The position numbers and the translations under genes were made by a program. The notes beneath the pieces were generated by a model that searched no databases, was not told the DNA's origin, and saw only the letters and a list, made by a program, of their open reading frames with translations. Shown here one piece after another: positions 1,331-62,397 of a DNA stretch of 64,000 bases (positions are counted from its first letter, which is position 1; the number at the start of each line of letters is the position of its first letter). The stretch spans positions 28,600 through 92,599 of the forward strand of contig CAZPQX010000001.1 of the NCBI GenBank assembly GCA_964589445.1. Direction: 5' to 3'. The DNA comes from an uncultured Candidatus Saccharibacteria bacterium (GTDB lineage Bacteria; Patescibacteriota; Minisyncoccia; Phycocordibacterales; WO2-35-19).

Positions 1331-2389
1331 TTACAAATACTTACCTATCGCAAGTACGTGCTTCACCAGTGTCGCTGTGTACCCCATCTCGTTGTCATAC
1401 CAAGCGCACACTTTGACCAAGTTACCGCTGACGACACGAGTGAGCCCAAGGTCGGCGATAGAGCCATAGAGTGAGCCGATGATGTCAGAAGAGACTATAG
1501 GGTCGTTGGTGACAGTGAAGATACCTTCCCATCTTTTCTCCTTGGCTGCTTCGGTGAGTATTTGGTTTATTTCTTCAACACTAGTGTCTCTCTTGGCGAT
1601 AAGGGTGATGTCAGCGATAGACCCAGCGACTACAGGCACTCTCATAGAGATGCCATCAAACTTACCTTCAAGGTCGGGGATGGCTTTGGTGACTGCGATA
1701 GCGGCTCCAGTAGAAGTGGGTAATATATTTTGAGCCCCAGCTCTACCCTCTTTAAAATCTTTTTTGTTTGGACCATCGACTATCGACTGGCTAGCTGTGT
1801 ATCCGTGCACTGTGTTCAAAATAGCCTTTTCGATACCTATCTTTTCGTGGAGTATCTGCATGAGTGGGCTGCCTGCATTGGTAGTACAAGATGCATTTGA
1901 AGAAACCTTTGACTTCTCTAGTTTTTCGTCATTTATACCCATGAGCACAGTTGCCTGTGTCTCGTCAGCGGGCGCGTCTTTGGCTGGAGCTGTGATGACC
2001 ACTCTCTTTGCCCCAGCTTCGACATGCACTTTTGCCTTTTCAAAAGAAGTGAAGGCACCTGTCGACTCTATCACCACATCAATATTTAAATCCTTCCAAG
2101 GCAAGAGGTTTGCTTCCTTTTCAGAGAGAAAAATTATTTCTCTCTGACCCCGCGAAGCTTCAGCGGAGTGGGGTCCAATTATTATCGCTTTCTTATCGTC
2201 CCTTACAGAAACAGGAAACTGAGCCGGCCCATAAGCAGTATCGTATTTGATAAGGTAAGCGATATTTTCGATGTCACCTAAGTCATTGATAGCTACCACT
2301 TCTATTTCTGGGTTTTTTTGAGAAAGTTTGAGAAATGCTCTACCTATCCTTCCTGCGCCGTTTATTGCCACTCTAATTTTTTTATCCAT
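1331..2389 (-). CDS. gap: glyceraldehyde-3-phosphate dehydrogenase
   Basis: 352 aa; 'INGAGRIGR' NAD-binding motif and 'ASCTTN' catalytic-Cys motif. Confidence 0.95.
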   Translation of the reverse strand: MDKKIRVAINGAGRIGRAFLKLSQKNPEIEVVAINDLGDIENIAYLIKYDTAYGPAQFPVSVRDDKKAIIIGPHSAEASRGQREIIFLSEKEANLLPWKDLNIDVVIESTGAFTSFEKAKVHVEAGAKRVVITAPAKDAPADETQATVLMGINDEKLEKSKVSSNASCTTNAGSPLMQILHEKIGIEKAILNTVHGYTASQSIVDGPNKKDFKEGRAGAQNILPTSTGAAIAVTKAIPDLEGKFDGISMRVPVVAGSIADITLIAKRDTSVEEINQILTEAAKEKRWEGIFTVTNDPIVSSDIIGSLYGSIADLGLTRVVSGNLVKVCAWYDNEMGYTATLVKHVLAIGKYL

Positions 2390-2486
2390 GGGTTTTTATT
2401 CTTACTTGTAGTCCTCAAATTATACTACTCTGTACCCACTTTTACACCCTACTTTGTGCATATAAAAATTGGCAAAAGGAAAACCC

Positions 2487-2524
2487 CTTCGGCATCGTTC
2501 GAACTGATGACGCCGAAGGGGGTG
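2487..2524 (-). terminator. rho-independent terminator hairpin, minus-strand sense
   Basis: Perfect 10-bp stem ccccttcggc/gccgaagggg; on the minus strand it is followed by UUUUCCUUUUG. Confidence 0.5.
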
Positions 2525-2728
2525 TAGACGAGCATAGGTCCAGTGGTTGAACATGAATCTTGCATGGAAACCAATCATAAACTCTTAGTCCCACATTGGG
2601 GGACGGATATTTACAAAAGGCAGCCATTCCTTTTTAGGGGCTCATTTTTGGCTTTCAAGCTCAGCTTGAAAGCGGTAATGATACTCACATGTTGCAAGTG
2701 ACTGGGTTGGCGGTGTGTCCGCCTTACA
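2525..2728 (-). ncRNA. candidate small structured RNA of about 200-240 nt, identity unknown
   Basis: GC-rich non-coding stretch in an AT-rich genome. A near-consensus sigma70 promoter lies on the minus strand (TTGACA, 17 nt, TATAGT at about 2735-2767). A strong terminator lies at 2487-2524. The only ORF (2442-2627) runs through the terminator hairpin. Confidence 0.3.
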
Positions 2729-2734
2729 TCGTCT

Positions 2735-2767
2735 TCTGACCACTATAATAAATATTCCTAAAATTTT
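2735..2767 (-). promoter_or_regulatory. sigma70-like promoter (TTGACA-17-TATAGT) on the minus strand
   Basis: rc of 2735-2767 reads TTGACAAAATTTTAGGAATATTTATTATAGTGG. Confidence 0.4.
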
Positions 2768-2849
2768 GTCAAGTGTTTTTAAAAAAATCACATAAACAGA
2801 AAACCCGCTGCGGACAGCAGAGGACTCTCTGCTACCGCACGCGGGCTAT

Positions 2850-3113
2850 TTAGCGAGGTGCCAAGGTGATGAAGTATTCGCCGTAATGGTCGGTACCGAA
2901 TTCTGCCTTCTTCCACCCGCCGGTCGCCGTATATTTCCTGGCGACCTCTTTCACTATGCGAGGAGTGTGGTTGGGTGATTTTGGTACCGGGAAAACACAA
3001 TTTTCTCCAGGAACAAAGTTGTTCATCAGGAAAAGATCACACTTTTCTTCGAGGTGTTTTGCGTAGATCAGCTCGTCGCTGTTCAACGCCAAATCTTTTG
3101 GTGTCAAAGCCAT
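2850..3113 (-). CDS. hypothetical small protein (87 aa)
   Basis: ORF with locally elevated GC; hairpin 2796-2840 lies just downstream; no recognisable motifs. Confidence 0.3.
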   Translation of the reverse strand: MALTPKDLALNSDELIYAKHLEEKCDLFLMNNFVPGENCVFPVPKSPNHTPRIVKEVARKYTATGGWKKAEFGTDHYGEYFITLAPR

Positions 3114-3257
3114 TTTTTGGTTCTCCTTTATATATTATAGCAAACTTACAGGATTTGTCAACCAAGTTAGAAATATTATTTCTAACTGGGTCAATAGCAA
3201 AAATAACACCAAAAAACACCACTTTTAGGGGTGTTTTTTGTGCTTTATTTTGAGTAT

Positions 3258-5636
3258 TTAAGCCGTTTTGGATTCCTTTGTTGTAGCCGTTGTGTTTACT
3301 ATATCGTCTATTGAGCAAACTCCAGAGGCACAAGCGAGCTCTTGCTTCGAGTCTATCTCATCACTTCCCTCGTAAGTCACTATCTTAGAGAAGTCGATGT
3401 GCTCTAGCCTCTTCATGAGCTCGGTATAAGTCTTCTCATCTATCTTTTCATACGGAGCGAGCTGGTAGACATGGTTGTCTCGAGGGAGGAAAGAAAGTCC
3501 GCCGATGATGTCCCAATTCTTGTAGAGCCAGTTTGCCACCTCTATCCACTCGTCTTCGCCTACTGATATGGTGGTCGAAGGGTTGTGCTCGGTGAAATTC
3601 TCCTTTACCTGCTTCCAGTACTCAAGCTGCTCTATTGCAGTCTGGTCATCTTTGAAAGCTGTGGTCTTTGGAGATTTGACTGGGAAGTCGATGACATAGG
3701 TAGTCGCATTTTCCATGGTCTGTCCGACTTCTGGGTTGTAAGGCACGCCCTGGTCTTTAAGCATTTTAAATAGTGAGTCTGTAGCCGCTATCCTCACTCT
3801 CCTGATGTAATACTCTGAGAATCGTGGGTGGACTCCAGAAGAAGAGTCGACAGTCTGAGATAGGTTGCCAGAAGGTTTGGTACAAGTGATGCAAGTAGAC
3901 TCAGGGATATCAAACCTCTTTGCAAATTGCCTGTTTACTTTTATCGCCTCGAGCTTGAGCTCTCTCATCACCTCTGGCTTCCTGACCACAGGAGAGTCCC
4001 ACTGACCGGTGATAGATACGCCGAGGAGTCTCTCCTTGTCGCAATTTTCTTTCCATTCTTTTGAAAGGTATGGGAATTTGGTAAGTGTCGCTTGGTAAGT
4101 ACCGATGATAGCAGCCACTCTAACCTTTTTCTTCAAGCTTTCGAGGGTGTCGCTGTGGCGAGCCACTACTTCAGAGAGGTTACAAAATTGCTTTGACTGG
4201 AGGATGATTTCACCACATGGGTTGGTGCCTACAGGCTTCAAAAATTTGTTATCTTCGGAGACGACACCTGTTTCCTTGAATAACTTAATTCTTCTTTCTG
4301 GCAATGTTTTGACGAGACCACCACGGTTGAATATGCCTCTCTCGCCTGCATTTGATTTGATAAGGGCAAGCCATTCATCTAGGAATTGTTCGTTAGTAGG
4401 CTTTTCGTTGTAAACTGCGCTGTTGTTTGCGAGCATCCTCTGTGGGTCTGTGTTCCAAAATTGTCCTTTCTTTGCGTCTCTTATCTCATCGTCCTCAAGG
4501 TCGGAAAGAGAGATCATAGCGCTCCTTCTCACGCCTCCCGCGACAACACACTCTCCTATCTTGCAAATGATGTCATGAGCGTCTATCGTGCGGAGTCTCT
4601 TGCCCTGTCTCGCTAGCATTTTTGATTTGGTAAATCGCAAAACATCCATAAGTGGTTGAGGGCCTGAAGATTTGCCACCCATAGTAGCGAGTCTTGCTCC
4701 GGCAGGGCGAAGCTGTGAGAAATCAAACTCCACATCCTTACCTTCTGCCCAAGTGTTCATACCCAAAGAAAGTGCGTCGGCCCAACCTTCCTTGCTGTCA
4801 GGTATGACATGTACAAGAGGTTTACCTCCAGTCTGTTTTTGTATTTGAGGAAGTTTCTCTATGTTGTCACTTTCTACAGACCAACCAGCTCCAGTGCCAC
4901 ACATGGAGATATACATTATTTCAGCGAAGTCTTGGAATGAGCTAGGAGCGATATAGGAGCAGTTGTAAGCACAGACATTTGTCGCTCTAGCTGCCTTACC
5001 TGCAAATTGGAGGAGCCTCATCGAAGGCATGGCTTCTTGTTTCAAAATAGTTTCTCTCACTTCTTCGTATTCTGCTTCCTTGAGTTTCTCGCCCAAATTT
5101 TCTTTCATAAAGCTCATGTATCTGTCCACTGTTTCCATCCAAGTTTCTCTTCTGTTCTCTTCAGCCATCCATTTTGAATATGTCCTGTAGTAGATAAACT
5201 CACCCAAAGCATTTTTGAAATATTTTTTGCTATCAGAAGCAAGCTTTTTTACTCTTTCTGGCACTGCAATACCCTTTAAGCGGACTTCTGATCTTCTTTG
5301 TCTATAGAGAATGTAGTTTTTGGCAGTATTTACGTATTCAGAAAGTATAAGCTCTTTTTCGACGCTATCTTGTATACCCTCTACATTTGGCAAAAAGTTT
5401 TTGAACTTCTTTGAAATCCTCACCAAATCCGCAAGCACCTTGTGAGCCACCATACGAGCCTCTGCTTCGCTGCCTTCGTTTGAGGCCACCATAGCTTTGT
5501 TTATGGCATTTACTATCCTCTCAAAATCAAAAGATGCGATGGAGCCATCTCGCTTTTGTACTTTCTTTATGAAATCTTCCATAGCACTTTTTTTAGTTTG
5601 CTTTATTGAAGAGGATTTTTTTGCTATTTTTGCCAT
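3258..5636 (-). CDS. ribonucleotide reductase catalytic subunit with N-terminal ATP-cone (probably class II, B12-dependent; no nrdB neighbour)
   Basis: 792 aa; ATP-cone 'VQKRDGSIASFDFERIVNAINKA'; active-site 'TNPCGEI'; C-terminal Cys pair 'ACASGVC'; no small-subunit gene nearby. Confidence 0.8.
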   Translation of the reverse strand: MAKIAKKSSSIKQTKKSAMEDFIKKVQKRDGSIASFDFERIVNAINKAMVASNEGSEAEARMVAHKVLADLVRISKKFKNFLPNVEGIQDSVEKELILSEYVNTAKNYILYRQRRSEVRLKGIAVPERVKKLASDSKKYFKNALGEFIYYRTYSKWMAEENRRETWMETVDRYMSFMKENLGEKLKEAEYEEVRETILKQEAMPSMRLLQFAGKAARATNVCAYNCSYIAPSSFQDFAEIMYISMCGTGAGWSVESDNIEKLPQIQKQTGGKPLVHVIPDSKEGWADALSLGMNTWAEGKDVEFDFSQLRPAGARLATMGGKSSGPQPLMDVLRFTKSKMLARQGKRLRTIDAHDIICKIGECVVAGGVRRSAMISLSDLEDDEIRDAKKGQFWNTDPQRMLANNSAVYNEKPTNEQFLDEWLALIKSNAGERGIFNRGGLVKTLPERRIKLFKETGVVSEDNKFLKPVGTNPCGEIILQSKQFCNLSEVVARHSDTLESLKKKVRVAAIIGTYQATLTKFPYLSKEWKENCDKERLLGVSITGQWDSPVVRKPEVMRELKLEAIKVNRQFAKRFDIPESTCITCTKPSGNLSQTVDSSSGVHPRFSEYYIRRVRIAATDSLFKMLKDQGVPYNPEVGQTMENATTYVIDFPVKSPKTTAFKDDQTAIEQLEYWKQVKENFTEHNPSTTISVGEDEWIEVANWLYKNWDIIGGLSFLPRDNHVYQLAPYEKIDEKTYTELMKRLEHIDFSKIVTYEGSDEIDSKQELACASGVCSIDDIVNTTATTKESKTA

Positions 5637-54066: not shown

Positions 54067-57000
54067 ATGGCTCGCTTCACTCGTAAATTTGATGCAAAGG
54101 CATATTGGGCAACGAAGCCTTACTGCACAGTTTGCAAGAACCACAAAGTGAAGGAAGGAAATATATGCTATGAATGCAAACAAGCGGCAATGAAACAAAA
54201 ACGCGAACTCAATAAGAATAACGAGGTAGAGATAGAGTCTTTTGCCTCTGCTGATATTGAGACTCCAGAGCCGCGAAAGAAGCGCGTTTCTAATATTTCA
54301 GCTGAGGCACAAAACAAAGTCGTTCGACTGTTTACATATTTGGAGAAGGCCCTCGCTGTCGATGATTCCATTGTTCGAGATTTTCGTACCAATACAGCAG
54401 CACCTTCTCCATGGTGGCTGGCAGACTATCCTACAGACCTCGAGAACCTAAGTATCCGCCCTTTTGATACTGAGAAAACTCCTGAAGGCGTGCAATCTAC
54501 TTCATGGCTGAAGGTGGAGAAGAAGAACATCAAGGCGGCACCTGAACTGCCAAGCCAACTTGAAGAGTGGATCGATGAGGTTAACCCACTACAAGAGCCG
54601 GTCGCTAAAGAAAAGGTAGATCGAAAAGTCCGCTTTGCTGACGACAAAGATCGTGAGAAGGAATTCAAGAATTTCCGGAAGAATTTTGAGCAAGGAGATG
54701 AAATTCCTGAAATCCTAAAAGATTGGGTGACAATCTTGCCAAACCAGTTGCCAGAATCAATCAGTGTGAAATACGTTCCTGATAATTGGGCGGATCATCC
54801 TGAGCTTGCAAAGTTGCTCGATGGATATACCGAAAATGAATGGAAGCCATGGGCAGAGCAGGTGAAGAAAGTCTATAAAGCAAATCTTCTCTACGATCAG
54901 CTCTATGCGCTCCGATTGCTCCTGAAGAACGAAGGAGATAACTACGAGCTCCTGTTGGGTCATGGTGTTTTGACCTGGCAACATCAGGGAGTAGGCACGA
55001 TCTACACTCCAGTTTTCCTAAGCCCTCTTACGCTCGATTTTGATGCGTCAAAACGAACGATTGAAATCAACCCTGATCCGATGTTCAGGAATTTCGTCGA
55101 GACCTCATCGCTCTACGAGACTGACAATCCGGCTGAAATGGATCTCATCACTTGGGGAGATACCATCAATGCCAATCCGTTCGACTTCTGGCATCTTGAA
55201 ACCCTCAAAGGTCAAGCACAGACGCTAGTCAACTACATCTCACCGGACGGAGAAGATAATTTTACTGACGAAATCGTATCTGCTCCTACTGCATCAAAAA
55301 ATCCAAGTATCTGGAACGCTCCGGTGATCTTTGCTCGAAAGCGAACCAACGATATGTGGTCAAAGTACGCGGCTACGATTCGCAAGGATATCGAGCAGTA
55401 CGGAGTCGAAGCGACTGAATTCATCACTGACCTTGTTGGTGAATATGACGAAACTCCTGTAGGTGCGCGTGATGGATCTGATGGTGAACGCATGGAAAGC
55501 GGTAATGTATCTATTCCGGAATCAGAACTCTACTTCCCATTGCCTTGGAATGACGAGCAGAAGCGAATCGCAGAAAGACTCGATGCAAATTATGGTGTCG
55601 TAGTTAAAGGCCCGCCGGGTACTGGAAAGAGCCACACCATCGCAAACCTGATCTCTCGCTTCTTGGCACAGGGTAAGAGCGTCCTAGTTACTTCACAGAC
55701 GAGTAAGGCCTTAGAGGTGTTGCGTGAAAAGCTTCCTGAAAATATCAGGAGTCTTGCCGTGTCCCAGTTGCAACAGACTGCGAAGCGAGACGATGTGCTC
55801 CAGCAATCGATTGGAGAGATCAGCTCTAATCTCGGCGAGAGAGATACTAAATTTAGTGAAGCACGCGCAGAGAATGTCCGCAGGGATCTTAAGAAAGTCC
55901 GAGAAGAAAAGGCTACCCTCGCAGCAAAGATTCGGCAGTACATCCTTACTGACTCATCGGAGAATTTGGTTATCGATGGTGAAGAAATAAAGCCTATCGA
56001 TGCGGCAAAATTTGTCGATAAGAATAAAGACAACGAGGCTATCGCTTGGTTTACCGACAAGGTTCCATTTGATTCCGCCCCTAACTTTACAGAGGAAGAT
56101 TTGCAGGAAATTTATGACCTCGCCAAGGATGTGGAGGAGGTAGATCGATCTCTTCACAAAGAAGATTTACCTGATCACTCGATCCTCCCTAATGAGGACG
56201 TGGTATTGAGCGCATTCGCTGCGCATCGTGATCTCAGTGCTAAATCTAAGGCCTCTGACGAAGCGTTCAGCAAGGCGAAGATCGATCAAGAGACGCTTGG
56301 TCAGCTATGGGAACTCCTCAGCAGGGCGAAGAAAGTCTTGGGATCTATAAATCAGGATTACGAGCAGGAAATCTTCGACGCCTGTGCGATTAGCCAGAAT
56401 GAGCGTGATAAGTGGTCTTCTATCCTCTCAAAGATTTCAGAAAAGATTCAAATCGTGGCGAAGGGAAAGAACAATGCTATTGGACATGTCATTACCGGAC
56501 AATCCAATCTTTCAACTCACGACCTTCGCGAGGCAGTCGAAGCGTTGTATGCAAAAGCATCAAAGGGAAAACTTGGAACATTTGGCAAGATGCTTCTCCC
56601 TGGAAATGCAAAGCGCATTCTTGAAACCTACAAAGTGGATGGAGCGGGACCTGATAGTCCTGAGAGAGTAGAAATCTTGCGAAATTCGATACTTGTCGAA
56701 GCCGCAGAACGTGAGATCAAGACGCTCCTAGAGCAGGGACTTTCAGCTCTCAAGAACCCTCTCGAAATCGATCTGGATCGTCTTGATCTGGTCAAGCTCG
56801 AGGTATTCGTTGCAAGCATTCAAAGACTTGCAAACTATCATTCTGATTTCGCTGGAATCAATACCTGTTTCAATGAGGTGAAGGAACTCTCTGATCTGTC
56901 GTTCACTAAGAAGACCGACATTGAGACCGCTATCGAACTTACTGCATCGCGTGCAGCCGCATTTGAGCTTAAGAATCTCGAGAAATCATTTACAGAATGG

Positions 57001-58872
57001 GAAGAAACTATCCGATCGTCAGTAAACTTCCGCACTCAGCACGTCATTGTCGATGATCTGGCTCAAGCAATTGTGAAGCGCAACTCTACCGGTTGGAAGA
57101 GTTGCATTGAGGAACTCAATTTGCTCGTTGGAAAGAAGGAGAAAGCGACGAGGCTTAACGAACTATGTGAACAGATCAAAGAACAGGTACCAAATCTGTG
57201 CCGTGAAATCATCGAGCTAGCTGATCAGAAGCAGAAATTTGATTGTCCAGAGAATCTGCTGATCGCATGGAAAGTCGCACGGCTTGAGTCATGGCTCAAT
57301 CATATTCATGACCATGTTGATGTCGATACCTTGCAGAGTGAACTCGAGCGTTTAAACAAAAAGGAATTTGAACTCAATTCTGAACTCGTTACTGTGCTTG
57401 CGTGGCAGCGTCAGATCGACAAGGTTACCAAGCGTCAGCGCGATGCTTTGATGGCTTGGTCCGATGCAATGAAGAAGTATGGTAAAGGCACTGGAAAATA
57501 TGCGAACAAGTGGCTGAATGCCGCACAGCAATCTCTCAAGGAAGCAAAGAATGCAGTTCCTGTCTGGATCATGCCTCTTCACCGCGCAGCTCAAATGTTC
57601 TCAGACCCTACGGCGGGAATGTTCGATGTGGTGATCTTCGATGAGGCAAGTCAATGCGATATTCGTGGTCTCACTATCGGATATCTTGGTAAGAAATTGC
57701 TTGTCGTTGGAGACCCTGACCAGATCAGTCCGGCGGGCATATTCCAAGATCAGGAAAAGACCTTTGAACTTATTTCCCGATTCCTCTTCGATATTCCCCA
57801 TAAGGATAACTTCTCGATCACTTCGAGCCTCTTCGATCTGGCAAAGATTCGTATTCCAAACATGATCCAGCTGAATGAGCACTTTAGATGCGTTCCTGAG
57901 GTCATTGCGTTCAGCAACTACCACATCTACGATTCAAAGCTTAAACCGCTTCGACATCCGCACCCTAAAGGACTCCTGAAGCCTGCTCTTGCTCCTATAT
58001 TGGTCGAGGGAGGCTATCAGAACACCAATAATAAGGTGAACGAACCAGAAGCGAAAGCTGTCGTAGAGAAGCTTGTAGAACTTTTGGAGGATCCGAATTA
58101 CCAGAAGCGTCCTGACGGCCATCTTTGCAGTTTTGGAATTATTTCTCTGCTCGCAGAAGATCAGGCGAAATACATCAAGGATCTAATTTTGAAACACCCG
58201 AAGATCGGAGAGAAAGTGATCGAGGAAAGAAAGATTATTTGTGGTGACGCATACGCATTCCAAGGCGATGAACGCGATGTGATGCTTCTATCCATGGTAA
58301 GAGCCCTTGATCCAAACAAGCCAAATGACACTGTCGCACCTCTTACTGATAAGGGTGCAGCACAACGCTTCAATGTGGCTGCTACTCGCGCACGTGATCA
58401 GGTATTCCTTTTCCACTCAATTCCTTTGGAAGAATTCCGAAATCAGAATGATTGGCGATTCAAGCTACTTAATTGGTACTACGATCCAAAGAAAGAGGAA
58501 CTCAAAGCTGGCCGCGAGATACTTAAGAAAGAATTTGATTCAGGCAGAGCGTCAAACTTCTCATACGAAGTTGGAAATCTCATTATCGATAAAGGTTATC
58601 AGGTTCTGCCTGAATATCCCGTAATCGGCTATCGTATAGATCTTGTAGTTCAAGGTGCTGAAGCTCGTCTTGCAGTTGAATGTGACGGAGACCAGTATCA
58701 TACGCTCGAAAACTGGGAAGAAGATCAAGTCCGCGAGAGACAACTTCGCCGTGCTGGGTGGGAATTCTGGCGTGTGACCGGTAGCTCATTCTATCGCCAC
58801 AAGGAAAAAGCACTCGATAGCCTTTGGAAGAAGCTCGACGAGCTTGGTATCAAGCCGATGATTGATCGCTAG
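54067..58872 (+). CDS. 1601-aa SF1 helicase (AAA_11/AAA_12, Upf1-like) fused to a C-terminal DUF559/Vsr-like endonuclease; N-terminal Cys4 zinc finger
   Basis: Walker A 'GPPGTGKSHTIANLI', Walker B/motif II 'VVIFDEASQCD', motif VI 'VAATRARDQVFLFHS'; C-terminal 'RIDLVVQGAEARLAVECDGDQYH...RRAGWEFWRV' = DUF559; N-terminal 'CTVCKNHKVKEGNICYEC'. Confidence 0.8.
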   Translation: MARFTRKFDAKAYWATKPYCTVCKNHKVKEGNICYECKQAAMKQKRELNKNNEVEIESFASADIETPEPRKKRVSNISAEAQNKVVRLFTYLEKALAVDDSIVRDFRTNTAAPSPWWLADYPTDLENLSIRPFDTEKTPEGVQSTSWLKVEKKNIKAAPELPSQLEEWIDEVNPLQEPVAKEKVDRKVRFADDKDREKEFKNFRKNFEQGDEIPEILKDWVTILPNQLPESISVKYVPDNWADHPELAKLLDGYTENEWKPWAEQVKKVYKANLLYDQLYALRLLLKNEGDNYELLLGHGVLTWQHQGVGTIYTPVFLSPLTLDFDASKRTIEINPDPMFRNFVETSSLYETDNPAEMDLITWGDTINANPFDFWHLETLKGQAQTLVNYISPDGEDNFTDEIVSAPTASKNPSIWNAPVIFARKRTNDMWSKYAATIRKDIEQYGVEATEFITDLVGEYDETPVGARDGSDGERMESGNVSIPESELYFPLPWNDEQKRIAERLDANYGVVVKGPPGTGKSHTIANLISRFLAQGKSVLVTSQTSKALEVLREKLPENIRSLAVSQLQQTAKRDDVLQQSIGEISSNLGERDTKFSEARAENVRRDLKKVREEKATLAAKIRQYILTDSSENLVIDGEEIKPIDAAKFVDKNKDNEAIAWFTDKVPFDSAPNFTEEDLQEIYDLAKDVEEVDRSLHKEDLPDHSILPNEDVVLSAFAAHRDLSAKSKASDEAFSKAKIDQETLGQLWELLSRAKKVLGSINQDYEQEIFDACAISQNERDKWSSILSKISEKIQIVAKGKNNAIGHVITGQSNLSTHDLREAVEALYAKASKGKLGTFGKMLLPGNAKRILETYKVDGAGPDSPERVEILRNSILVEAAEREIKTLLEQGLSALKNPLEIDLDRLDLVKLEVFVASIQRLANYHSDFAGINTCFNEVKELSDLSFTKKTDIETAIELTASRAAAFELKNLEKSFTEWEETIRSSVNFRTQHVIVDDLAQAIVKRNSTGWKSCIEELNLLVGKKEKATRLNELCEQIKEQVPNLCREIIELADQKQKFDCPENLLIAWKVARLESWLNHIHDHVDVDTLQSELERLNKKEFELNSELVTVLAWQRQIDKVTKRQRDALMAWSDAMKKYGKGTGKYANKWLNAAQQSLKEAKNAVPVWIMPLHRAAQMFSDPTAGMFDVVIFDEASQCDIRGLTIGYLGKKLLVVGDPDQISPAGIFQDQEKTFELISRFLFDIPHKDNFSITSSLFDLAKIRIPNMIQLNEHFRCVPEVIAFSNYHIYDSKLKPLRHPHPKGLLKPALAPILVEGGYQNTNNKVNEPEAKAVVEKLVELLEDPNYQKRPDGHLCSFGIISLLAEDQAKYIKDLILKHPKIGEKVIEERKIICGDAYAFQGDERDVMLLSMVRALDPNKPNDTVAPLTDKGAAQRFNVAATRARDQVFLFHSIPLEEFRNQNDWRFKLLNWYYDPKKEELKAGREILKKEFDSGRASNFSYEVGNLIIDKGYQVLPEYPVIGYRIDLVVQGAEARLAVECDGDQYHTLENWEEDQVRERQLRRAGWEFWRVTGSSFYRHKEKALDSLWKKLDELGIKPMIDR

Positions 58873-59023: not shown

Positions 59024-60073
59024 TTATCCACCTATCCAGAACCACAGGTTATTCTTGGTCTCCTCGCTCAACTTGTAGGCATCAGCATGCGACATTACAC
59101 CCATATATGAGCGAAGCGAAGATTGCAGGGTTTCCTCGCTAATATTCCCGTCCTTAAACATTGCCGCTTTCTCTCGGAGCTTACGGATCATTCTGCGCCT
59201 CGTTCGTGCTCTGAGAAGGATATGGTGTGGAAAGATAACGTAGCCTAAGAAATCCACTCCTTGGTTTGGCTTACGGACAATAACCTTTTCAGGGTGAAGG
59301 GATAGCTTGAGTTGTTCTTGCAGGAAATTCTCCATCTTGACAAGGATCGGTTCCAATTCTGATTCGTCATGGCTCAATACCACAAAATCATCGGTGTAAC
59401 GGACATAGCACGCGACTTTCAGTTCGCGCTTAACGAACTGGTCAAATTCATTCATGTATACATTCGCAAAAATCTGCGAAGTGAGATTGCCGATCGGAAC
59501 ACCTCTATGACTGAAAAGATCGGACTGACCGCTAGAGAAGCTTCCTACAATTTCTCTCAAAAGCTCCATCATCTCTGGATCTTTTATTTTCCTTTCAAGA
59601 ATAGACAGCAGGATTGTGTGGTCCACCGAATCAAAGAATTTTCTTACATCACATTTAAGCGCATAGCAGGGGCGCGTGTAATTCTTGCTTACTTTGCGGA
59701 TCATTGTATTGAGTGTCGCAACCCCCTTATGAGTTCCTTTGCCTACGCGACAAGAGAACGAGGTCGGTATAAAAGTAGGCTCAAAAATCGGATTCAATAC
59801 ATTGAAAACTGCATGGTGCAGAACTCTGTCTCGCACGCTTGCTTTATGTATATGTCGGCGCTTCGGATCATAGATATGAAAACCCATATACGGACGATGT
59901 TTGTAGGTCTTGTCCCTAATCTCTCGGTACAACTCGAAAACATTCTGCTCAAGATTTCTCTCGAACTCCAGAACGTCCTCCTTCTTTCCTTTGTCCCGCT
60001 TGAATTCGTCCCAAGCCGAAAACAAGTTTTCGGGACTGCACACATTATCAAATAATTTATTAAATGTTTTCAT
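59024..60073 (-). CDS. diversity-generating retroelement reverse transcriptase
   Basis: 349 aa; RT motifs, 'YVRYTDDFVV' (YxDD); DGR-specific motif-4 'GVPIGNLTSQIFANVYM' (SQ in place of the group-II QG). Confidence 0.85.
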   Translation of the reverse strand: MKTFNKLFDNVCSPENLFSAWDEFKRDKGKKEDVLEFERNLEQNVFELYREIRDKTYKHRPYMGFHIYDPKRRHIHKASVRDRVLHHAVFNVLNPIFEPTFIPTSFSCRVGKGTHKGVATLNTMIRKVSKNYTRPCYALKCDVRKFFDSVDHTILLSILERKIKDPEMMELLREIVGSFSSGQSDLFSHRGVPIGNLTSQIFANVYMNEFDQFVKRELKVACYVRYTDDFVVLSHDESELEPILVKMENFLQEQLKLSLHPEKVIVRKPNQGVDFLGYVIFPHHILLRARTRRRMIRKLREKAAMFKDGNISEETLQSSLRSYMGVMSHADAYKLSEETKNNLWFWIGG

Positions 60074-60426
60074 CTATGAATGACACTGACATCCCAATTC
60101 TTAAGAAATCGTATGAGCTTTATAAGATCTTTCACGAATACCGAAGAGTTATTCCGAAGACGGAACGCTTCACGGTATACGAGCGTAGCGAGAACGCCAT
60201 ACTCGACGTTATCGAATGCTTCTTTGAGGCAGGATACATGCGAAGCAATAACAAAGTTGCATTGCTGGAAAGAGCGAGCGTGAAGCTTAATCTTCTGCGC
60301 TTCTTCTTCCGTCTCATGAAGGAGAGCAAGACCTTCGACAACAAGAAATACGTTGCGCTTCAGACGGTCATCGACGAGATCGGCCGAATGCTGGGCGGAT
60401 GGATCCGTTCCAGCAGCGCGAGGTAA
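60064..60426 (+). CDS. avd: Avd-like accessory variability determinant (four-helix-bundle protein)
   Basis: ~117-120 aa; 'IPKTERFTVYER...FFEAGYMRSNNKVALLERASVKLNLLRFFFRLM...IDEIGRMLGGWIRS' matches the four-helix-bundle / 23S-IVS protein family used by DGRs; the likely start is the second ATG (~60076). Confidence 0.7.
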   Translation: MFSSMNDTDIPILKKSYELYKIFHEYRRVIPKTERFTVYERSENAILDVIECFFEAGYMRSNNKVALLERASVKLNLLRFFFRLMKESKTFDNKKYVALQTVIDEIGRMLGGWIRSSSAR

Positions 60427-60474
60427 CAAAAGAGCGTCCGCTGGGACGCTCTTTTGCCGATGAAGGAGTGACTT

Positions 60475-60602
60475 CGGAACGAACCCGGAAGCCGACCCGT
60501 AGTTGTCGTTGGCATTGTCGAACCAGTTCGTGTCGAACTTGACCTTGCCGTCGTTGAAGTTGAAGTACGGGGCGTTGTCGAAGCGGACATCGGAATCCGG
60601 AT
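60475..60602 (-). repeat. DGR template repeat (TR)
   Basis: 128-bp repeat with ~10 mismatches to VR at 61014-61141; every mismatch is at a T on the plus strand (= A in the minus-sense TR). Confidence 0.85.
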
Positions 60603-60906
60603 GTTTGCCTTTACCCGTCCGTGTCACCGAAGCTTGAAAGCGGTTCCTGTTGGAAACAAGACGCGATCTCGCTCCTGAATTTTATTCAGCAACACCCGCC
60701 GTATAGGCTTATTGGTTTGCATTGAATAAAAGCAAGCAGTATCTCCTTATCGCGGCACTCTCCTCCAAACCGTAATCGAGAGGACTCTGGCCGGTTTCTC
60801 TAAAGAGAAAGAGTTCGGCGACGGCAATCCGTAAACGGCCGTGCATTAGCCTAGACTCGCCGTTAATTGTATCAAAAATTGAGCGCTACGCGCATAAAAA
60901 GAAATC

Positions 60907-60936
60907 AGGGTTACCCACGCTGTGGATAACCCTGAA
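60907..60936. terminator. hairpin cagggtta-cccacgctgtgga-taaccctg ~70 bp 3' of VR (target-gene terminator and/or DGR-associated stem-loop)
   Basis: 8-bp stem, T-runs on both sides. Confidence 0.5.
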
Positions 60937-61004
60937 ATTTTTTGCCGCGAATTCAAGAATCAAAAGAAAGGATTCAAAAGACTCAAGAATTCGAGGATCG
61001 AGGA

Positions 61005-61898
61005 TCAGTTCTGCGGAACGAACCCGGAAGCCGACCCGTAGTAGTCGCTGGCATAGTCGAACCAGTACGTGCCGAACTTGACCTCGCCGTCGTGGAAGTT
61101 GAAGTACGGGGCGCGGCCGAAGCGGACATCGGAATCCGGATCGTCGTACTCGTCACCCGAGCAGTCGATCCAGAGGTCGTCATAGTTCATGAGCCGTTCC
61201 GGATGGGTCAGGATCATGATGCCGATGGCGAACGCGCCGAGGCCGAACTCGTTGGAGGCGAAAACCTCGCGAGCACGACGAACGGAACGTCCACGATGAC
61301 GGATGCCGAACTGCGCCGGAACGACGAGGATGTCGTGATCTTTCTGCTCGTCGCCGAGCTTCTGGAACACGCCTGCCGTCTTGGTTGTCTGCCGAAGACG
61401 CTCGGGACCGAGCTGGCCGTCGCGGTAGTTGTAGAACTTGCCGTTACGGGTCTGCTTGATCATGTCGAGCACCTTCTGCACCGCCTCGTTGTAGGTCGGG
61501 GCGATCTTCTCCCACTTCGGGATGGCGAACCATCCTTCGGCGTTCGGGGGAAGCGCACCTTCGGCCAGCTTCTCGTCGGCGTAGCCGATGCCGGGGAACA
61601 GCTCGCGCAGACGGTTGGTCTGTTCGGTGATGCCCTTCGGCTTGTAGCCGGAGAGGTACCCGTAGCTGGATTCGGTTTCCTCGTCCTTGAACTTGTCGGA
61701 GACCGACAGGTCCTTGAGCGAGGCGAGTGCCGCATTGCGGATTGCTTCGGCGAATTCGTCGCCGTGTTCGATGACGCGCTGTGCGCCAGGGTTGTCGAGA
61801 CCGAGCTCACCGAGAACCTTCTCGATGGCATCGGAGCCGAACCGGTTGATCTGCTTGATCTGACCGGCGGTTGCGTTTGTCTGAGTAATCGCGTTCAT
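61005..61898 (-). CDS. DGR target protein with C-terminal variable C-type-lectin-like region
   Basis: 298 aa from the GGAG-preceded start 'MNAITQTN'; C-terminus 'SDVRFGRAPYFNFHDGEVKFGTYWFDYASDYYGSASGFVPQN' is encoded by VR; markedly GC-rich. Confidence 0.75.
   Translation of the reverse strand: MNAITQTNATAGQIKQINRFGSDAIEKVLGELGLDNPGAQRVIEHGDEFAEAIRNAALASLKDLSVSDKFKDEETESSYGYLSGYKPKGITEQTNRLRELFPGIGYADEKLAEGALPPNAEGWFAIPKWEKIAPTYNEAVQKVLDMIKQTRNGKFYNYRDGQLGPERLRQTTKTAGVFQKLGDEQKDHDILVVPAQFGIRHRGRSVRRAREVFASNEFGLGAFAIGIMILTHPERLMNYDDLWIDCSGDEYDDPDSDVRFGRAPYFNFHDGEVKFGTYWFDYASDYYGSASGFVPQN
61014..61141 (-). repeat. DGR variable repeat (VR)
   Basis: See TR. The TR-encoded peptide is 'DSDVRFDNAPYFNFNDGKVKFDTNWFDNANDNYGSASGFVP'; the VR-encoded version has Asn (AAC) codons diversified to G/R/H/Y/S. 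Confidence 0.85.
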
Positions 61899-62397
61899 TT
61901 GCGTTATCTCCAATTTTTCTGAATTGCCGAAATCGCTCGGTGACGACTTGTCCCTGTATGAGACGAGTTTGCTGAGGCCTAAACTAAGCCACAAAAAGCT
62001 CGTCTCATGCATCGTTATGCAGTGATCCTTATCTCAAAGAGCAGTCTCCAGTATCATATCAAACAAATGACTGTTTGTCAATGATTTTGGCGATATGTCA
62101 AATGTCGGTAAAAGGGCTTCGCAACAGCCTTTTTCTAAGCTAAGCTACTGACTAATACCATCAATTTTGGTATTATGTTCTTGGTACAACTGAATATGAA
62201 TTGACCTAACCCCTCAGGGATTTCCCCGAGGATATGGTCGAAAATTCCGTCCAAAGTAAAGAACTCCTAATCAGAGCTACTTTGGACGGTCATATCTCGA
62301 AAGGGGTATGGGTATATCTCACGGGATATATCGGCCTGGTTAGGAGCTTTTTGCTACCTGACTAATTATTAGATTAGTTAAAAATCCGTCCAAAAAT

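Follow-up and report, generated by a model that had tools for sequence, protein, structure and literature searches.

The stretch of DNA analysed here (64,000 nt, hereafter the window) carries on its minus strand, between the genes for class II ribonucleotide reductase (RNR) and GAPDH (gap), a unit that is best read as an independently transcribed, intrinsically terminated and highly structured non-coding RNA gene, probably of a new and very narrow family with an accessory, trans-acting product; we put the probability of this reading at roughly 60%. As an object it is of an ordinary kind, a small RNA (sRNA) gene, with an unusual modular pattern of two alleles. Comparison of related loci places the unit as an accessory cassette in a recombination hot spot between RNR and gap. 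Based on the relatives of its GAPDH, the host belongs to the Patescibacteria, near the Zambryskibacteria/Paceibacteria. The initial annotation of this region had proposed a promoter-to-terminator non-coding unit on the minus strand, and all of the elements of such a unit are present, at coordinates a few bases removed from those first given.

Promoter, terminator and boundaries of the unit

The RNA unit sits between an orphan 87-aa ORF cassette and the gap promoter, with the following features, listed in the direction of transcription:

5636..3258, minus strand: class II RNR
3161..2802, minus strand: orphan 87-aa ORF cassette with its own perfect promoter and terminator
2847..2802, minus strand: upstream boundary, the terminator hairpin of the 87-aa ORF cassette, outside the RNA (dG -34.8 kcal/mol, z -7.5)
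2772..2745, minus strand: sigma-70-type promoter, -35 TTGACA at 2772..2767, 16-nt spacer, -10 TATTAT at 2750..2745
2740..2474, minus strand: predicted primary transcript of ~255-265 nt including terminator and U-tract, from the promoter and terminator positions
2734..2524, minus strand: structured core of ~211 nt, defined by its folding-energy z-score, the independent fold of a second long copy and compensatory pairs
2734..2729 with 2531..2526, minus strand: P1 closing stem, AGACGA with UCGUCU
2723..2709, minus strand: P2 hairpin GGCGG-ACACA-CCGCC, common to the long and short types
2673..2651, minus strand: P5 distal hairpin, an inverted repeat with perfect 11-bp arms
2616..2575, minus strand: P8 arm, UUGUAAAU..UC..GUCCC-loop CCAAUGU-GGGAC..GA GUUUAUGA
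2521..2474, minus strand: intrinsic terminator, hairpin at 2521..2484 followed by UUUUCCUUUU at 2483..2474
2477..2419, minus strand: downstream boundary, the shared flank TTTTGCCAATTTTTATATGCAC and gap's own promoter
2389..1331, minus strand: gap (GAPDH), followed by rpiB, rpe and tkt

In a consensus scan the promoter matches at 11 of 12 positions, and matches of 11-12 out of 12 are rare (three in 8 kb). All five copies of the unit identified in this work keep it (ACTTGACAA..GGAATATTTAWTATAG) while the flanking DNA diverges, with conservation extending to both hexamers and to the spacer block GGAATATTTA. Transcription is predicted from this position to start around 2740-2736. The TTGACA of the near-consensus promoter proposed initially is present, but the TATAGT with which it had been paired (2747..2742) would need a spacer of 19 nt and not the 17 nt given, and the -10 element is instead TATTAT. 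The terminator had been described as a hairpin with 10 perfect pairs and a U-run and is just that, forming 13 pairs in all, 10 of them perfect (CCCCUUCGGC/GCCGAAGGGG; dG -25.8 kcal/mol, z -6.35). It is conserved in the related locus L084, with changes from U-A to U-G and from G-U to A-U, and a different terminator occupies the same position in the short type of the RNA. A reading of the GUUCGAA in the terminator loop as a T-loop or tRNA-like element was rejected, as L084 does not conserve it and has GUUGCAA instead. The GC-rich character ascribed to the unit holds only in a relative sense, the RNA having 48.6% GC, the flanking intergenic DNA 20-33% and the window as a whole 41.5%.

The hairpin upstream of the promoter, previously noted as separating the unit from a small ORF, is real and is the terminator of the 87-aa ORF; it is directly followed by UUUUCUGUUU, and a remnant of its 3' half is found in the same place in locus L109. 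The RNA is not the 3'UTR of the 2850-3113 ORF, a possibility that had been raised initially and is excluded: a strong terminator of its own closes this ORF, and L111, L114, L083 and L109 have the RNA but lack the ORF. Downstream, the gap promoter (TG[CT]AAA-16/17-TATAAT, -10 TATAAT at 2424..2419) is located between the RNA terminator and the ATG, and relatives without the RNA, both close and distant, likewise have a TATAAT 25-35 nt ahead of the gap ATG.

Besides its very strong terminator, the 87-aa ORF itself (2850-3161, minus strand) has a promoter, TTGACA-16-TATAAT, that is perfect and includes a TG extension. A search of a 5.8-billion-protein set returned only the protein itself. Among the loci compared, a 37%-identical relative (E 9e-12) occurs at the same RNR|gap spot, without the RNA, in L008 (3536-3775), and there is a weak relative in L009. 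The neighbouring small ORFs have no matches in Pfam, PHROGs or PADLOC.

Fold, covariation and coding potential

The 263-nt body has a minimum free energy of -93.5 kcal/mol (z = -5.77), and none of 200 shuffled sequences folded as well. In the predicted structure, P1 encloses the P2 hairpin, after which P3 and P4 lead to a junction from which P5, P6 and the P7/P8 arm branch off, and P1 is followed by a 3-4-nt linker and the terminator. The second long copy (L109 with L084), folded independently, adopts the same architecture as the copy in the window. Between the two long copies the P8 arm keeps all 15 of its pairs, with changes on the 5' strand (U.G to C-G and G.U to A-U) and an invariant 3' strand, and the block GAGUUUAUGAUU (2584..2573) within the arm is invariant. 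The distal P5 hairpin is the most variable part of the core, and is replaced in L084 by an irregular, longer hairpin. No repeats were detected within the RNA unit.

Covariation in the long type was assessed using helices defined by hand on the two-copy alignment (P1, P2, P3, P4a, P4b, P5a, P6, P7 and P8a-c), leaving out the indel-rich distal P5 hairpin. Over the 50 pairs tested, 98% of cells are standard pairs; six pairs have changed on both sides and remain paired (one each in P2, P3, P4b, P5a, P6 and P7), and a further four have changed on one side through G.U. In controls in which the 3' partners were slid by 1-3 columns, 30-41% of cells were paired, with zero or one double change. From the three short copies come two more compensatory pairs, one located in P2 and the other in the distal hairpin, where UGG/CCA has become GGG/CCC. 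Across all five copies, P2 has undergone two independent compensatory changes, giving GGCAG/CUGCC in L084 and GACGG/CCGUC in L111 and L114, and P1 covaries between the types (C-G in long, U-A in short). The check for conservation and co-variation proposed with the initial annotation returned five copies with compensatory changes in both types. Because the sample is no more than two long-type and three short-type sequences, the statistics are weak, and shuffled controls reached the observed covariation values in 8 of 500 (long) and 57 of 500 (short) cases. Read on the plus strand, several of the conserved G.U pairs would turn into A.C mismatches and, on this evidence from pairing, the minus strand is therefore the functional strand.

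Comparison of the window with the L084/L109 genome gave 82% identity for the RNA and 54-61% for the four-fold degenerate sites of gap and RNR, a difference that indicates purifying selection on the RNA. The initial annotation had noted that the only internal ORF runs through the terminator, which is true of both a 61-aa ORF (2442..2627) and a 52-aa ORF (2420..2578). In L084 the 61-aa ORF meets a stop after five codons; the 52-aa ORF has a 46-aa counterpart there, but nine of the ten codons that differ are changed non-synonymously and a pair of indels shifts the frame between them. Neither ORF is conserved as a protein and the coding hypothesis was rejected.

Distribution among related genomes

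The closest GAPDH and RNR proteins were looked up in a large assembly collection, which yielded four more copies of the RNA in addition to that in the window. The resulting five copies come only from the closest relatives, all within one narrow clade; two have the long core and three a short core. In all five, the RNA is situated between RNR and gap, directly upstream of gap and co-oriented with it, behind the same promoter. The copies outside the window are:

L109 (3' end) with L084 (5' end): long type; two contigs from the same sample with an 11-nt overlap (nhmmer E = 1.9e-28)
L083: short type; after an ORF other than the 87-aa ORF
L111: short type; follows the RNR terminator immediately, no small ORF being present
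L114: short type; follows the RNR terminator immediately, no small ORF being present

The second long copy was stitched from the end of L109 and the start of L084, which overlap by only 11 nt, and follows an ORF unrelated to the 87-aa ORF; the GAPDH of this strain is 88-91% identical to that of the window. The assembly of SRR11509474 breaks inside the RNA gene (L109 4260-4270 and L084 1-11, overlap GACGAATGTCG), and allele heterogeneity in the population is one possible cause of the break. What the short type shares with the long one is the promoter, P1 (its 5' strand retained and its 3' strand still able to pair) and the P2 hairpin; its core, of ~65 nt, and its terminator are different, and the long and short cores are unrelated to each other.

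The unit is absent from L112 and L113, the GAPDHs of which fall in the same 90% cluster as those of L084 and L111, and from L085 (GAPDH 85%), in which RNR and gap are 95 nt apart. Using nhmmer and the covariance model at and around the syntenic site, no RNA was found in 80 loci of GTDB GAPDH relatives. Approximately 25 of these 80 loci keep the RNR-gap synteny with a spacer that is mostly only ~75-100 nt, and the 87-aa ORF and RNA therefore represent an insertion at a variable spot. In six loci, whether they carry the RNA in its long or short form or lack it, homology resumes exactly at TTTTGCCAATTTTTAT, beginning with TTTTGCC, right after whichever terminator is present. As the unit is present, shortened or absent in the closest strains, it is an accessory and not a housekeeping RNA.

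Searches over a wider range of sequences returned no further members. The covariance model of the RNA (R1), which scores 235 bits, had strong matches only in the window and L084 when run over 128 sources (~1.04 Mb), with weak matches on the short copies driven by P1 and P2. No paralogue was found in the window with nhmmer, the 16 matches of a metagenome pattern scan (ATGTGGGAN{2,4}AGAGTTTATGA) were all due to chance, and three IMG/VR pattern scans and a blastn search of phages produced no real match.

Other small units occupy the same location. A cassette in L083 (4247-4665), L109 (3701-4105) and L112 (1-60) is composed of an orphan ORF of 91-96 aa (57% identical between two loci), a GC-rich stretch of ~130 nt and a terminator; the GC content of the stretch is ~75% as estimated by eye, compared to ~41% for the genome as measured on the window. 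In more distant relatives the RNR|gap spot holds a different promoter-terminator unit of ~100 nt (L006 3640-3800, L108 2715-2860, L104 1-125 and L028 ~2520-2545) with no Rfam match, the first hairpin loop of which (UCCUCCGAG) resembles an anti-Shine-Dalgarno sequence.

Relation to known RNAs and possible roles

Rfam 15 has no family covering the RNA in the window, either at gathering thresholds or at E<=10, and its only matches in the window are one LOOT RNA and two tRNAs. The homologous copies in L084, L109 and L111 have no match at E<=1, and no family covers the RNA in 16 syntenic relatives. The candidates tmRNA, RNase P RNA and SRP RNA were rejected (no Rfam match, and no tmRNA detected by ARAGORN), as were type I/III antitoxin RNAs, retron msr-msd and guide RNAs (omega, bridge, crRNA and TIGR), there being no adjacent toxin, reverse transcriptase (RT), nuclease or recombinase and no repeats; the only RT in the window lies ~56 kb from the RNA. 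A literature search on structured RNAs of the CPR or on LOOT returned nothing relevant.

The unit has most in common with generic trans-acting sRNA genes with Rho-independent terminators that are found in accessory or variable regions, sharing an own sigma-70-type promoter, an intrinsic terminator, a lack of coding capacity, variability between strains and a position between core genes. With the two long and three short sequences in hand, it has the attributes expected of such a gene, namely its own promoter and intrinsic terminator, a conserved structure with compensatory changes and no conserved ORF. Compared to typical base-pairing sRNAs, it is larger and more structured (a closed multi-helix core of ~211 nt) with no obvious single-stranded seed, and among sRNA genes the combination of two alleles with the promoter, P1 and P2 in common and with unrelated cores is unusual. 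The raiA, ROOL, GOLLD and OLE RNAs are large orphan non-coding RNAs with complex folds, discovered by comparative genomics and all represented by Rfam models. The RNA described here resembles them in its size (>200 nt), covariation-supported multi-junction fold, sporadic distribution and orphan biochemical function, but differs in having no Rfam match at E<=10, a far narrower distribution and no association with prophages or tRNA clusters.

The initial annotation favoured a 6S-like or other housekeeping RNA, a category that would also take in divergent SRP, RNase P or tmRNA. The size of ~250 nt, strong promoter, stable fold and GC content above the intergenic background all agree with such an assignment, and with 6S RNA (RF00013 and related models) in particular the likeness extends to order of size, promoter strength and structural stability. 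6S RNA forms a long, rod-shaped hairpin, opened in the middle by a large bubble that imitates an open promoter, and is a lineage-wide housekeeping RNA, whereas the RNA here has a branched fold closed by P1 without a rod or central bubble, matches no model in any copy and is missing from the nearest strains (L112, L113 and L085) and ~80 GTDB relatives, making this assignment exceedingly improbable. It is also highly unlikely that the region encodes no functional RNA and is a read-through tail of the 87-aa ORF, the decaying remnant of a cassette or a small-protein gene. The location is prone to insertion, the unit is found in very few genomes and the 52- and 61-aa ORFs are present, all of which would fit; against this, the 87-aa ORF ends at its own terminator and is dispensable to the occurrence of the RNA, the RNA evolves much more slowly than four-fold sites and does so with compensatory changes, and the internal ORFs are not maintained as proteins.

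Given its placement, the RNA could instead be a cis-acting leader of gap, either a riboswitch or a protein-binding attenuator, with the terminator gating read-through from the strong promoter. All copies lie immediately upstream of this metabolic gene on the same strand, and the succession of closing P1, short linker and immediate intrinsic terminator resembles an aptamer with its expression platform. This synteny carries little information because all copies derive from one narrow clade, and other properties run counter to those of leaders: gap's own promoter intervenes after the terminator and is conserved in strains without the RNA, neither the cores nor the terminators of the long and short types are related, no known aptamer class is matched and there is no conserved antiterminator. 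In folds of truncated transcripts, pairing the 5' arm of the terminator with upstream sequence improves the energy by no more than -1.1 to -2.3 kcal/mol in three of the four copies; the fourth has an alternative at -7.6 kcal/mol that the others do not share. A leader function is accordingly judged unlikely and the RNA is probably not a gap riboswitch, though a minor contribution in cis by read-through may occur since every copy is co-oriented with and directly upstream of gap. We infer that the RNA is neither a core housekeeping RNA nor a regulator required by gap. A further explanation, somewhat less doubtful than a leader and still improbable, is an RNA of a conflict system (antitoxin-like, anti-phage or conferring strain-specific immunity) with a core under diversifying selection and a partner encoded elsewhere. 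Presence, absence and alternative cores vary among strains with GAPDHs at least 88-92% identical, the hot spot also exchanges small orphan ORF cassettes with strong promoters and the same genome has a diversity-generating retroelement (DGR) and a helicase-nuclease defence candidate, though these are 50 kb away. Conversely, the genes next to the RNA include no toxin, reverse transcriptase, nuclease or Cas-like gene, the neighbouring small ORFs are without database matches and are not consistently linked to the RNA, and the RNA has no repeats and no matches in phage or IMG/VR collections.

This distant region of the window contains:

54067-58872, plus strand: 1601-aa SF1 helicase with a C-terminal MTES_1575/DUF559 nuclease domain
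59024..60073, minus strand: DGR reverse transcriptase (RVT_1 1e-26; phrog_1423 4e-124)
62203-62332, plus strand: LOOT RNA (RF03000), a full-length match at 78 bits

The DGR region spans 59024-62012 on the minus strand, with a 131-nt template repeat (60472-60602) that is 92% identical to a variable repeat (61011-61141) at the 3' end of an ORF (61005..62012); all ten mismatches are adenines in the RT-proximal copy. The LOOT RNA and the start of the DGR target gene are ~190 nt apart. The best PADLOC matches of the SF1 helicase-nuclease, a candidate for a defence function beside the DGR, are PDC-S37 (1e-62) and Hhe (4e-34).

Under the preferred reading of an accessory sRNA gene, the RNA would be expressed from a strong, constitutive-looking promoter and act in trans as a stable folded molecule. 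P1 and P2 would form a common scaffold, for stability and/or for a shared protein partner, and the exchangeable core would set what is bound, whether a protein or a nucleic-acid target. Searches for targets within the window, by duplex formation and by complementarity, have low power and found nothing beyond chance. RNAduplex against 63 start regions gave a best value of -40.9 compared to a mean of -41.2 for shuffled RNAs. The longest complementarity in the window is a 14-mer (~0.1 expected by chance) located in the non-conserved P5 hairpin, and was taken as coincidence because this stretch is not conserved in the L084 copy. The 14-mer is at 60631-60644, where the minus strand is identical to part of the P5 hairpin (ACCGCUUUCAAGCU), 29 nt from the DGR template repeat.

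The polymorphism in presence, absence and allele, together with the cassette hot spot, would fit an accessory and possibly conflict-related role, which is speculative. A bolder and rather unlikely version is that of a modular accessory RNA, in which a chassis of promoter and P1/P2 receives unrelated cores (long, ~170 nt; short, ~65 nt) swapped by recombination between strains. Such an RNA might serve as an RNA-only, strain-specific determinant of specificity, for example in the phage or host conflicts of an episymbiotic CPR bacterium, and would count as one type of cassette in a hot spot of tiny promoter-terminator units that had not been described before.

The Patescibacteria (CPR) have small, streamlined genomes, and to our knowledge hardly anything has been reported on their regulatory or structural RNAs. 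The tempting label of a 6S-like housekeeping RNA is corrected here, the RNR|gap spacer is marked as a hot spot for cassettes, and a defined structure and covariance-model seed can now be used for searches of metatranscriptomes. A multi-helix RNA core of ~211 nt that is held under purifying selection, yet is present, swapped or absent among near-identical strains, shows that even these minimal genomes carry accessory RNA genes.
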